Positions 1 to 3,000 of a stretch of DNA of 64,000 nucleotides are shown here, piece by piece. The DNA is taken from positions 124,001 to 188,000 of the forward strand of contig CAZERA010000001.1 of the NCBI GenBank assembly GCA_964514565.1. Direction: 5' to 3'. Source of the DNA: an uncultured Candidatus Peribacteria bacterium (lineage in GTDB: Bacteria > Patescibacteriota > Gracilibacteria > RBG-16-42-10). Numbering within the stretch: position 1 is the first letter of the stretch; each line of letters opens with the position of its first letter. Made by a program: the position numbers.

Positions 1-3000
1 ACGATGGTGTCATGCACTGAGAAACCCATTACAGTAAGCAGAGCAGTAATGAAAAGTGTGTCTACCTCCAAGCGGAACACTGAGAATACACCGATGGTAA
101 TGATCAAATCATGAATCAGAGCTACTACTGCAACGATACCGAAACGCCATGGATTGAGTGTCTTTGGTACTTTGCGGAAAGCATAAGTGATGAACAAAAT
201 GATGAAGAGTGCAGCGACTGCAAGAGATTTGAAGGCATTGGTTTTGAGAGTAGCTCCAATAGTAGGCCCAATTGTTTCAAAACGTAGTTCCTGCACCTCT
301 TGGTTGTTGTTGATAAGCTTGAATTGATCCAACAATTTCTGACGAGTTTCATTGTTGATATGCTTCATGCGCAATACAAATCCATTGTTTTCAGTAGGTT
401 GTACTACGGTGTTGCTCAAGTCTGGATTGCTTTCTGCCTCCTGAAGACCATTGGCACTTGCTGCTGGTGTAGCAGTAGGATCAGCGATCTTTTGGGCATA
501 GGCGATTGGTAGCAATGATGTCTGCTTGACTACAATGTGAGTCTTGTTGATTGCATCTTGTACTTGTTGAGAGGTGACTGCTTGATTGAATTTAACTTCC
601 ATCAAAGTACCACCAGTAAAGTCGATACCGGTATGGAGACCATTGGTAAAGAGGGATACAAGCGTAATGATGATCAAGATACCAGAGAAGCCAAAGAATA
701 ATTTGTCATTCTTAACAAATTGGATATTGCTATGAGTATCACTAAATCCACACTTCCATAGTTTGGGATTCTTGAACCAACGATAACCTAGATCAATGAA
801 TGTACGAGTAAGATTGATAGCAGTAAACATACTGATCAAAATACCAATTGCCAAGGTAATAGCGAAACCCTTGATGATGTTGGTACCGAAAATAAATAGA
901 ATAAGACAAGTAATTAAACTTGAGAGGTTAGAGTCGTGAATTGAAGTCCAAGCGCGGTTGAAACCAGCTTTGATTGAAGCTTCTAGGCTCTTGCCACTTA
1001 CTAGCTCTTCTTTTAGACGTTCAAAGATCAAGATGTTTGCATCCACGGCCATACCAATAGACAGGATAAATCCGGCTATACCAGCCAAGGTAAGGGTAAT
1101 GTGGAAAGTTTGGAAAACAGCAGCACTAATGATGCCGTAGAGTGTAAGACCAAGTAATGCTGCTAAACCTGGTAGGCGATAGTAAAGCAACATGAAGACG
1201 ATCAGTACTAATAAACCGACCATGCCGGCTTTGAGAGCATTGGCGAGTGCGTCTTGACCCAATGTAGCACCTACGGTGTTTTGACCGATCAAGATTACTG
1301 GGGCAGGTAAAGCACCAGTATTCAAATTGGTAGCTAGGTCATTTGCTTGAGCAGCAGTAAAGCTACCGGTAATAATCGCTTCACCACTGTCGATTACTGT
1401 TTGCACAGTTGGAGCAGAGATATTTTCATCATCCAAGAAAATACCAATTGGTTTGTTGAGATTCTTCTTTGTGAGTTCAGTAAATAATTTCTTACCTTCG
1501 TCATTGAATTGGATCTGTACAATATAGCCCACTCCGTTGGAGTTTATAGCTGCATTAGCATGACTAAATTGCTTACCAGTGAGCCCAGTACTTACCCAAC
1601 CATCAAGTGGTTTAGCTGGTTTTTTCTTGAGCAGTAATTCCTGTCGTTTTACTTTTACTGTCTCGGTCTTGTTGGTGACTTGAATGATATGATAACCAAA
1701 TTCAGTTTCGATAGGGCCGACAATAGTATCTTTTTGAGCGCCAAATGCAGCATCCTCAAAGTTTTTCGTCATTTCGCCCTTGGTGAACGTGCCCAAACTA
1801 CCACCTTTGGTGTTACTCAAAGCATCATCAGAGTTCTCAGTTACTTCTTTAGCAAAAGTATCTTTAGTGACACGGGCCTTGATATCGTCAGCTAGTTTTT
1901 TTGCTTCTTCTTTGCTGCGAGTAACGTTTGGGCTAGCACGGTTAGCGCCTGTGTAGCTAATTAAAATATGATTTGCTTCCACCCCTTCTTCTTTTTTTGT
2001 ATCAAGAATCTTTTCTACATACGCTGCGTCTGGTGTCTCGATCATCACCAACTTTCCAGCAGGTAATTGACTAATTTGTGGCCAAATTGCTGGATCAACA
2101 CCATTCTCACTTTGGAAATCTATTTCGCCGCCAGTAGAAATATTTTTACCTTCAGACTTTTCTTTTACAATTTTAGTAAAGTCAGCACCAGGTTTTTCAG
2201 TGTCTTTCAAAATTGCCCTAGCACGTACTAATACATCAGCATTGTATTGATCATTGGCTTTTTTCTCTTCTGGAGACCATTCATCTTTTTGTTCTTTGAA
2301 TTCCAGCTGTACAGTTTTACCTACACGATTGATTGCTTCATTGATGTCTTTGACACCTGGGAGCTCTACCAAAATATAGTGGTCATCACCAAGCTGAGAT
2401 GTTTGTACTACTGCTTCAGATACGCCCAAAGCATTGATACGACGATCCATTACGCCCTTGATGCCCTCTACTACTGAGGTGCGATCACCGACAGGTATGT
2501 TGCTAGTATCTACCCGATAACGAAGCTGGGTACCACCTTGCAGATCTAGACCCAAACTAAACTTGATGTTGTTGATTGACTCAGCAATGCTGCCAGAGTC
2601 AGGAGTGCTACCAAGTACAGATTGTTTGATACTGGTAGGAGCACTAATAAAACCTAAACCTAAGGCGATAATACAGATTAGTACTACACGCGCCCATAAT
2701 TGTCTCAACATAGTAAAAAAAGTAAAAGAAGAACGCGCCGAATATAGCATAGACTATGAGGAGAATCTATCTTATTGTCACTATCCTTTTTTGCCTGCTT
2801 TTGGGGCTCATTATTAACCTCTTTTCTGTCAAGCAGAATTATTTCATTTCTGAGCAGATAAAGTGCTTCTTGCCACTAACCTTTTTCTTTATGAGAAGTA
2901 TTAATAAAGCAGTTTTACTTGGTAACTTAGCAGCTGACCCTGATGAGAAGGTTTTACCCAAGGGGCAGTCAATGGTTTCATTTCCCTTGGCAACTCACCG

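Follow-up and report, generated by a model that had tools for sequence, protein, structure and literature searches.

The DNA analysed here (the window) is a 64,000-nucleotide stretch covering positions 124,001-188,000 of the forward strand of contig CAZERA010000001.1 (C1), from the genome of an uncultured Candidatus Peribacteria bacterium (GCA_964514565.1). The assembly is a draft of seven contigs, and C1 contains 210 N. At the window's left edge, the ORF list places a minus-strand frame that encodes 916 aa and runs off the edge; read from the genome, the whole secDF gene spans C1:123703-126750 and encodes 1015 aa with 0 internal stops. Pfam assigns to this one chain SecD_1st (aa 98-155, E 1e-15), Rotamase_3 (aa 246-362, E 8.4e-31, 107.4 bits against a cut-off of 22.5), Rotamase (aa 261-359, E 4.6e-27), SecDF_P1_head (aa 388-483, E 1.1e-27) and two stretches each of SecD_SecF_C (E 5.5e-39) and Sec_GG. 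This order bears out the genome-wide survey's note, in which the parvulin follows the first P1 segment and precedes the P1 head, and the Rotamase_3 match, converted by simple arithmetic, yields the same parvulin coordinates as that note, C1:125665-126015. The features of the locus are collected in Table 1.

Table 1. Features of the secDF locus in window coordinates.
Feature	Window position	Strand	Basis or remark
Fused secDF gene	3..2750	-	Window holds aa 1-916; gene ends at C1:123703, 298 bases before the window start
TM1 (aa 18-36)	2643..2699	-	Hydropathy scan; membrane anchor of the outward-facing P1 loop
P1 base, first part (aa 64-155; SecD_1st)	2286..2561	-	Pfam; aligns with T. thermophilus SecDF 32-119; AF2 secondary structure
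Unit A (aa 160-250), degenerate parvulin-like core, alpha1 to beta4	2001..2273	-	
Unit B (aa 255-362), canonical parvulin	1665..1988	-	H261, D309, T349, H354; pocket L319, M327, F331
Putative displaced beta1 strand (aa 366-375)	1626..1655	-	KVKRQELLLK; family consensus VSRILIK
P1 head subdomain (aa 385-500)	1251..1598	-	Pfam; T. thermophilus SecDF residue 136 onward; Foldseek 5xan, 3aqo, 5yhf
TM2-TM6, SecD half (aa 505-647)	810..1238	-	Hydropathy; D570 aligned to T. thermophilus D340
SecF half, part within the window	3..701	-	TM7 aa 684-702, P4 loop aa 703-839, TM8 onward to aa 916; TIGR00966

The SecD and SecF portions score well above the NCBIfam thresholds (secD TIGR01129, 375.8 bits against 244.4; SecF TIGR00966, 224 against 160; TIGR00916, 283.7 against 148.6). 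Full-length SecDF equivalog models, on the other hand, remained below their cut-offs (e.g. NF009583, 509 against 721). A further SecDF model of 993 positions, NF009585, was suspected of containing a parvulin because its alignment began at aa 297; this was rejected, the parvulin alone matching only PrsA, SurA and PpiC models and none for SecDF. A simple Kyte-Doolittle hydropathy scan, rather than a topology predictor, delineated 12 hydrophobic segments, of which TM8-12 occupy aa 840-993. Because TM1 ends at aa 36 and the next segment starts at aa 505, the parvulin lies in the extracytoplasmic P1 loop, next to the substrate-binding P1 head.

A phmmer search of the PDB matched the SecDF proteins of Thermus thermophilus (3aqp, E 8.4e-74) and Deinococcus radiodurans (E 8.2e-71). 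These proteins (3aqp, 5yhf, 5xan) are likewise fused and 12-TM, with a P1 base and head and a P4 loop, and their charged transmembrane residues align with those of the window protein: in the printed alignments D570, D914 and R949 face T. thermophilus D340, D637 and R671, essential residues of the proton path. D914 is encoded within the window and R949 outside it. The first part of the P1 base ends in the strand QLEFKEQ, and Foldseek matched the P1 model to 5xan_B, 3aqo_C and 5yhf (E 1e-11 to 7e-11) with TM-scores of 0.23-0.24, which are low because the model holds four domains. In the explanation that we favour below, the gene product would be a working proton-driven 12-TM SecDF export motor.

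An artefact, whether from a chimera in the assembly or from a gene-calling error that joins a PrsA-like gene to secD, is scarcely credible. The 1015-aa frame is uninterrupted, both flanks of the insert are SecD sequence in the PDB phmmer alignment, and the architecture recurs in dozens of independent genomes, some of them single-contig. Rotamase and SecD domains also share one chain in all 120 of the 120 best homologues, which come from independent sources (NCBI, JGI, ENA and Logan); the fusion is therefore real, neither chance nor an assembly artefact. The homologue set and the genome scans refute the artefact, for which no evidence was found, and the survey's claim of a single reading frame across SecD and parvulin stands.

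Its claim that the insertion is conserved in many families of the class was likewise upheld, by the homologue set and by a scan of 401 class genomes, 238 of which gave a parvulin match; among 150 class matches listed, 143 lie in frames of 682-1139 aa. Across the phylum, a sample of 401 genomes contained at least 45, from 22 families, in which SecD houses a parvulin. The feature extends beyond the window's class, and SecD-only versions of it are found in other classes. In the majority of the Patescibacteria SecD proteins sampled the insert is missing, so SecD can work without it. A global census with a profile built from 18 tandem inserts retrieved 63,408 proteins at E<=1e-3 and 2,828 at E<=1e-30; the profile is not specific, the top of the list being free proteins with 2-8 parvulin repeats, and only 19 of the best 150 rows cover most of the profile with a single match (start 2-5, end 204-239). 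An ESM Atlas cluster labelled "Thermodesulfobacteriota", its phylum being known for 4 members, serves as a lead only.

The survey's note had equated the insertion with the parvulin of aa 246-362. A parvulin does occupy these residues, but the whole insert between P1 base and P1 head measures ~207-229 aa rather than 117 and holds two parvulin-like units, the one that the survey missed being degenerate (hhalign, 99.3%). Where some 16 residues (120-135) lead from the base strand to the head in T. thermophilus SecDF, the window protein has ~207. An AF2 model of aa 40-500 reached a mean pLDDT of 90.5. Unit B has the parvulin fold and the full set of catalytic-type residues (two His, Asp/Cys, Thr/Ser); the catalytic residues of Pin1 are numbered H59, C113, T152 and H157. 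Across 121 sequences of close homologues, H261 and H354 are retained in 120, D/E309 and T/S349 in every one, and the pocket residues L319, M327 and F331 in at least 95%. Going by these residues, unit B is probably an active, canonical peptidyl-prolyl isomerase. Unit A lacks both an own beta1 strand and the His pair, in whose place stand Y244, at the beta4 His position, and E371.

The best sequence relatives of unit B are PrsA proteins (phmmer E 2.3e-13 to 6xd8; NCBIfam PrsA E 3.2e-17). PrsA models nevertheless score only ~57-63 bits, far below their cut-offs of 343-361 (NF002846, 57.5-63 against 361), as do the SurA model NF008038 (41.7 against 394) and the PpiC model NF011969 (41.1 against 127). 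The survey had listed a Pfam SecD-parvulin chain with NCBIfam SecDF and PrsA-like matches; its SecD and SecF part held, while the full-length SecDF and PrsA models stayed under threshold. The PrsA of Firmicutes (4wo7, 6xd8, 2jzv) is likewise an extracytoplasmic parvulin that acts where membrane and wall meet, in cells that have no outer membrane. PrsA, however, exists as a lipoprotein on its own and has an N/C chaperone domain, whereas the window parvulin lacks that domain and is covalently part of SecD. SurA (1m5y) contains tandem P1 and P2 parvulins, but the window SecDF has neither SurA_N nor the C-terminal chaperone core. No SurA_N family appeared among its Pfam matches, while SurA_N_3, SurA_N_2 and SurA_N are found in free parvulin proteins of Patescibacteria. 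SurA is moreover soluble, whereas the module forms part of a membrane motor, and the relative orientation of the two domains differs (rmsd 9.9 Å).

Within this genome, which is 92.7% complete, both PF00639 matches fall within SecDF and PF13145 matches occur only there; SurA_N_3 and SurA_N gave no match, and no free PrsA-like protein was found in the same 92.7%-complete sequence. The SecDF module apparently takes the place of a free PrsA-like protein in this organism and in most of the class. Two cyclophilins resembling lipoproteins are also encoded and could supply extracytoplasmic PPIase activity, which counts against the explanation favoured below.

The strand at aa 366-375 may be a displaced beta1 that completes unit A, a pairing inferred rather than seen in coordinates; unit B would consequently be nested in the last hairpin of A. 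The DSSP string of the AF2 model shows continuous strands at aa 242-264 and 352-375, and the register sums are equal (244+371 = 261+354). Where position 244 is His, position 371 tends to be His as well (7 H/H, 3 H/x, 1 x/H and 110 x/x among 121 sequences). Relatives of family f27, whose inserts were read by eye, correspond to the tandem form minus unit B, and shorter relatives (SecD of ~550-590 aa) carry one parvulin. In all 86 proteins of the latter, single type, the best beta1-PSSM word follows the core, so that the His-bearing beta1 lies C-terminal to beta4, and both His are invariant. Searched against PrsA 6xd8 with phmmer, a single-type query aligned non-collinearly (residues 123-143 to chain 3-23; 37-111 to chain 20-92), and the single-type Pfam match starts at profile position 9-12 rather than 1. 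On these alignments the single-type SecD parvulin reads as circularly permuted, and the window architecture appears to be a nested one that arose from a circularly permuted parvulin. Compared with the [beta1-core]-[beta1-core] order of SurA, the core-[beta1-core]-beta1 order of the module would be shifted by one beta1.

In the parvulin-core tree (84 columns, 78 sequences), single-type and A cores group together with a support of 0.475, and B clades receive 0.916 and 0.826; because the support is weak, this tree does not tell whether B arose by duplication or was inserted separately. In the SecD-core tree, insert types are interleaved in the other-class clade, and since its loci were picked for having inserts, no gain or loss count was drawn. 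The insert might be a natural circular permutant of parvulin, and the tandem a preserved "permutation-by-duplication" core-[beta1-core]-beta1 in which a canonical, active B is nested in a permuted, degenerate unit, with a motor-actuated foldase having replaced free PrsA in the class; we offer this combined scenario tentatively and consider it rather doubtful as a whole. Because the module is placed where base and head of the proton-driven P1 connect, the swing of the motor could bring the isomerase up to the SecY exit and away again.

We propose that this SecDF, with its double-parvulin P1 module, is an export motor with a built-in foldase/holdase at the Sec exit, and put the probability of this explanation at about 0.68. 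The P1 loop would carry a rigid double-parvulin module at the junction of P1 base and P1 head, with unit A as a His-less parvulin-like scaffold that links B to this junction. Polypeptides leaving SecYEG would be caught by the P1 head, and the tethered parvulin pair would work on the emerging chains in the manner of PrsA, SurA or PpiD, as a foldase that isomerises prolyl bonds and a holdase that shields unfolded chains, so that translocation would be coupled to the first folding steps. With an intact and a degenerate parvulin in an outward-facing P1 loop, the export motor probably also helps to fold proteins. The survey's description of a secretion motor fused to an extracytoplasmic foldase gains support from Pfam, PDB phmmer, the homologues, the AF2 model and the class scan, the foldase itself being predicted.

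Known systems point in the same direction. In AlphaFold models, the two parvulin domains of SurA lie on the P1 head of SecDF (Troman et al. 2023, PMC9987972), and PpiD contacts the periplasmic domain of SecD (PMC9643414). The PpiD-YfgM assembly at SecYEG (8zht) likewise puts a parvulin-type chaperone at the Sec exit in contact with SecD/SecDF; Foldseek matched our P1 model to 8zht_A (E 6e-8). In Mycoplasma pneumoniae, two preprints describe PrsA-like, parvulin-type lipoproteins (Mdp444/436/489) that form a "dome" on a Sec translocon of which SecDF is a part, in contact with SecD/SecDF (10.1101/2025.04.25.650208; 10.1101/2024.09.05.611430), and in the first of these substrate density touches a PPIC domain. 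Both PpiD-YfgM and the dome consist of separate proteins held non-covalently, whereas the window parvulins are part of the SecD polypeptide. Counting against a foldase, SurA without its parvulin domains is reported to retain chaperone function.

The module might instead be a non-catalytic substrate catcher or holdase whose parvulin folds merely widen the binding surface of the P1 head, any isomerase activity being irrelevant. This would agree with the absence of the His pair from unit A in 110 of 121 homologues and with its losses elsewhere. Among 49 parvulin-bearing inserts read by eye, eight have no full His pair in the unit expected to be active (4/13 single, 1/21 tandem, 3/15 extended; two in family f7 of the window's class), so that catalysis is dispensable in some lineages. 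The pair is gone from the only or canonical unit in L014, L024, L029, L052-L055 and L011, and the code-25 relative G408 keeps just a His-less parvulin remnant. The parvulin-like domains of PpiD and SurA P1 are known to be inactive. Mdp444 of M. pneumoniae is also reported to have a His-to-Arg replacement at the beta1 position, a further likeness to the proteins described here (bioRxiv 10.1101/2025.04.25.650208). We nevertheless consider a purely non-catalytic role unlikely: H261, H354, D/E309, T/S349 and the pocket of unit B are retained in the window protein and 120 of 121 close homologues, which is hard to explain other than by selection on the active site, and both His are invariant in the 86 single-type proteins compared.

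The insertion site, as the connection between base and head, could also house a spacer, a contact to the wall or a partner (e.g. in the cell wall or S-layer zone) or a regulator of the P1 head swing, with no action on substrates. Low-complexity inserts of 82-118 aa at the same SecD site (L057, L058, L063), an additional stretch of ~100 aa in family f2 and SLH-domain proteins nearby would fit such a role. Yet catalytic-type residues and the proline pocket are kept across hundreds of sequences, as a spacer would not require, and Pfam found no wall-binding domain in the insert; we hold this explanation to be quite improbable.

In the literature outside subscription journals and supplements we found no description of a SecD-parvulin fusion, and our literature search likewise returned none of a circularly permuted parvulin. 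The field has yet to settle how the Sec channel passes nascent secretory proteins on to extracytoplasmic chaperones, and the docking of SurA, PpiD or PrsA-like proteins on SecDF is so far supported by cross-links, low-resolution maps and AlphaFold models. The conserved covalent joining of parvulin units to P1 is independent evidence, of the "Rosetta-stone" type, that both functions belong together. As a compact object on one chain, the fusion also lends itself to structural and biochemical studies of how translocation and folding are coupled. If the proposed topology is true, the protein would also exemplify how a well-studied enzyme fold can be circularly permuted, and one domain nested in another, in nature. 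For the organisms themselves, the fusion shows that genome-reduced Patescibacteria can combine two envelope functions in one gene.

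The secDF gene, whose 5' 90% occupies the first 2750 bases of the window on the minus strand in the ORF list, was read from the genome as one uninterrupted 1015-aa frame. All five Pfam domain types of its product lie on this single chain, which bears out the genome-wide survey's note that a parvulin PPIase (aa 246-362, C1:125665-126015) sits between the first P1 segment and the P1 head. The NCBIfam secD and SecF domain models scored above cut-off, and PrsA-type NCBIfam models scored far under theirs. The hydropathy layout is classical and places the parvulin in the extracytoplasmic P1 loop. 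The SecDF motor is intact; its D570, D914 and R949 are aligned to T. thermophilus SecDF residues D340, D637 and R671, which we take to be functionally important.

Features of SecDF, its gene neighbourhood and the cyclophilins of the genome
Feature	Position	Strand	Basis
secDF, whole gene	C1:123703-126750	-	genome
SecD_1st	aa 98-155		Pfam
Rotamase_3	aa 246-362		Pfam, E 8.4e-31
SecDF_P1_head	aa 388-483		Pfam
SecD_SecF_C	two stretches		Pfam
Sec_GG	two motifs		Pfam
TM1	aa 18-36		hydropathy scan
Loop of ~470 aa	between TM1 and aa 505		hydropathy scan
Five TM segments	aa 505-647		hydropathy scan
TM7	aa 684-702		hydropathy scan
Second loop, then five more TM segments	after TM7		hydropathy scan
Two SLH-domain proteins, one with RskA_C	L001:354-3948 (C1:118354-121948)
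921-aa Amidase_2 + SpoIID protein	window 4184-6949
Cyclophilin-type PPIase	C6:38328-38804	+	genome scan
Cyclophilin-type PPIase	C7:5423-5866	-	genome scan

The position that the survey gave for the insert stands, but its extent does not. SecDF aa 63-155 and 363-721 align with T. thermophilus SecDF residues 32-119 and 136-487; from these alignment ends, ~207 residues stand for only ~16 in T. thermophilus. With its limits set by HMMs for the base and the head on either side, the insert measures 229 aa, versus 17-32 aa at this site in five Patescibacteria SecD proteins that lack it. Tested alone, the first half of the insert (containing unit A, aa 160-250) fell just under the Pfam Rotamase cut-off (E 7.4e-4, 20.9 vs 21.7 bits), and it appeared as a second, weak PF00639 match in the genome scan. 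When profiles of aa 169-251 and aa 279-361 (121 aligned sequences) were compared, the match had a probability of 99.3% and E 4.1e-20. By sequence, the first half is itself parvulin-like.

AlphaFold2 modelled aa 40-500 from 121 sequences with a mean pLDDT of 90.5 and a pTM of 0.71. Foldseek matched this P1 model to the SecDF P1 structures 5xan, 3aqo and 5yhf at the top (E ~1e-11), and to SurA, Pin1, PrsA and PpiD-YfgM lower down. Based on VIA-align structure matches, modelled unit B (aa 255-362) is a canonical parvulin with its own N-terminal β1 strand. The DSSP string contains two unusually long continuous strands, one (aa 242-264) joining unit A's final strand to β1 of unit B, the other (aa 352-375) continuing on from β4 of unit B. 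If antiparallel pairing is assumed over their whole length, the register of H261 and H354 (sum 615) also sets position 244, the β4 His position of unit A, beside 371 (sum 615). Among the 121 sequences these two positions are H/H in 7, H/x in 3, x/H in 1 and x/x in 110, with N/R the commonest pair; the co-occurrence of the two histidines is suggestive, the sequences being related and no statistical test applied. The strand at 366-375 has the family consensus 'VSRILIK' versus 'ANHILI' in a true β1. Because of the register sums and the co-occurring histidines, we infer that this strand is the β1 of unit A, paired by register rather than from coordinates; if so, unit B would nest in the β4-to-β1 hairpin of unit A.

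Unit B has a complete catalytic-type site, as judged from an alignment of the window's protein with its 120 best homologues: H261/H354 are present in 120/121, D/E309 and T/S349 each in 121/121, and L319, M327 and F331, presumably the counterparts of the Pin1 proline pocket, are conserved at ≥95%. Among 49 parvulin-bearing inserts inspected by eye, from loci selected mainly for their inserts, the His pair of the expected-active unit is complete in 41 (9/13 single, 20/21 tandem and 12/15 extended). The pair is replaced by N/R in all four single forms of family f27 and, within the class to which the window belongs, by R/N in 2/3 genomes of f7; locus L029 lacks one His, L011 (family f8) is degenerate throughout, and the code-25 relative G408 has a secD with an in-frame TGA and only a His-less remnant as its insert. 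Such incomplete pairs count against a purely catalytic reading. The SecD frames (L084, L086, L088) of G408 (f155) and G417 (f163), both of the same class, carry one in-frame TGA in the former and 8 and 6 in the latter, which fits genetic code 25; their insert sites measure ~143 aa, reading as a His-less parvulin remnant, and ~38 aa, respectively.

The 56 SecD loci retrieved across the phylum were picked mainly for having inserts and are thus not a random sample. Together with the window's protein they comprise forms with no insert (n=5, 17-32 aa), a low-complexity insert (n=3, 82-118 aa), a single parvulin (n=13, 123-138 aa), a tandem insert (n=21, 225-257 aa) or an extended tandem insert (n=15, 277-371 aa). 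Single forms run from the base strand 'LLEFKEQ' through helices and strands to 'FGYHIIKK', a short loop, 'ASHILIKTK' and the P1 head. Since the His-bearing β1 strand comes after β4, their parvulin is circularly permuted in sequence. Several observations support this order. With a β1 position matrix built from canonical B units, the best word lay after the core in 86/86 single-type SecD proteins (median 7 residues past it) and, in a self-trained control, before the B core in 120/120 tandem proteins. The phmmer alignment of a single-type insert with B. anthracis PrsA (6xd8) was non-collinear, the core matching chain 20-92 and the later 'KEVKASHILIKTK' matching chain 3-23; the same insert was collinear with the SurA P1 core plus the SurA P2 β1 strand. 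Both histidines are invariant across the 86 aligned single-type proteins, and their Pfam match begins at profile position 9-12, not 1.

In family f27, the single unit of four genomes is His-less ('DGLNIIK' ... 'NVARIFIK'); deleting unit B from the tandem form seen in two further f27 genomes would give the same unit, an outcome predicted by the nested model. Unit B might descend from a tandem duplicate of the permuted unit or have been inserted separately; the core tree places single-type and A cores together with a support of only 0.475. Free, membrane-anchored parvulins from 20 Patescibacteria genomes (L064-L083) have a 'HILI' β1 after β4, near the C-terminus, in 14/20 cases and the standard strand order in 5/20, with one ambiguous; SurA_N domains occurred in five of five scanned with Pfam. 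Permuted parvulins are thus not confined to SecD and may represent a PrsA-like variant found throughout Patescibacteria.

Other architectures were also seen. Twelve loci of f2 and f9 (L010, L018, L020, L022, L023, L025-L029, L031, L033) encode SecD-only proteins of ~790-820 aa with inserts of 342-371 aa, in which unit B is intact, a much expanded, divergent region replaces unit A, and an extra ~35-aa segment follows unit B. At the same base-head site, L057, L058 and L063 (genomes G142, G066 and G051) have acidic low-complexity inserts of 82-118 aa in which no parvulin signal was found; they may have arisen by decay of a parvulin or by independent insertion. Many proteins of the representative set (240-1042 aa; for example P0223, P0224, P0242 and P0304) consist of 3-8 tandem parvulin repeats with no other Pfam domain, and scored higher than the SecD inserts when searched with the insert profile.

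Rotamase and SecD domains occur together in each of the 120 best database homologues. A Candidatus Abawacabacteria protein (1020 aa) shares 63% identity, and other source names include Gracilibacteria, Magasanikbacteria, Uhrbacteria, Falkowbacteria and Buchananbacteria; single-type homologues are named Kuenenbacteria, Buchananbacteria and Parcubacteria. As the survey had proposed, the fusion is conserved in many families of the class: a parvulin match occurred in 238/401 sampled genomes, including f1 (7/7), f2 (63/64), f4 (14/14), f6 (39/43), f7 (16/16), f9 (11/12) and f154 (26/31), and was almost or wholly missing from f155 (1/64), f163 (0/31), f5 (0/12) and f8 (0/8). Across the phylum, 323/401 genomes gave a SecD P1 match, mostly to the head part only in frames of ~430-550 aa, and 189/401 a parvulin anywhere. 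With a single match across the parvulin-to-head junction in 33 genomes and a Rotamase match in a 797-852 aa frame in 12 more, the parvulin lies inside SecD in at least 45/401 genomes from 22 families; loci read from four further genomes have degenerate inserts. Among the 150 class matches listed (141 others were found), the frame length is 682-1139 aa for 143 and 419-549 aa for 7; phylum-wide, by contrast, frames of only 116-473 aa hold 110 of the 150 matches listed. Twenty fetched from these short frames were membrane-anchored proteins, and the five scanned with Pfam were SurA_N-plus-parvulin proteins. Counts over related genomes describe spread rather than statistics. The double-parvulin module is long conserved.

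In this genome (1.12 Mb, 7 contigs, 92.7% complete), both PF00639 matches fall inside SecDF, PF13145 matches nowhere else, and neither SurA_N_3 nor SurA_N was matched. Two cyclophilins (L005, L006) have lipoprotein-like N-termini by eye ('...LMLSAC', '...LLVAC') and may serve as extracytoplasmic PPIases in addition to the SecDF parvulin; one FKBP domain occurs in a 422-aa frame. Downstream of secDF lie recJ and the SLH-domain genes; ssb, a histidine-kinase-like ATPase and the Amidase_2/SpoIID gene lie upstream and divergent. The SLH-domain and Amidase_2/SpoIID proteins represent cell-wall-associated functions in the neighbourhood. The secDF start codon (2750, minus) is 5 bases from the start of the listed ssb ORF (2756, plus; region 2750-3277). 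The SSB domain of this ORF begins only at residue 49, so ssb itself probably starts further downstream; for secDF, Met14 is a possible alternative start.

The double-parvulin module is extracytoplasmic and located at the base-head connection of P1, where, as a tethered foldase-holdase, it would act on chains leaving SecYEG. Parallels from independent studies make this plausible. In AlphaFold models of SurA with SecDF, the two parvulin domains of SurA sit on the P1 head (PMC9987972). In Mycoplasma pneumoniae, two preprints describe SecD cross-links to PrsA-like lipoproteins, which form a dome above the SecDF-containing translocon with a PPIC domain touched by substrate density (10.1101/2024.09.05.611430; 10.1101/2025.04.25.650208). 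As periplasmic domains of SecDF move with proton flow (PMC8669966), one may speculate that the motor could move a module mounted on this connection. The combination of SecD and parvulin is visible in databases, in precomputed Pfam strings and ESM Atlas cluster names; in the main texts of the open-access papers searched, we found no description of the fusion or of any permuted parvulin. SecDF and parvulin foldases are each well known, and what is new is their covalent, apparently nested and permuted arrangement. The fusion bears usefully on the question of Sec-chaperone hand-over.
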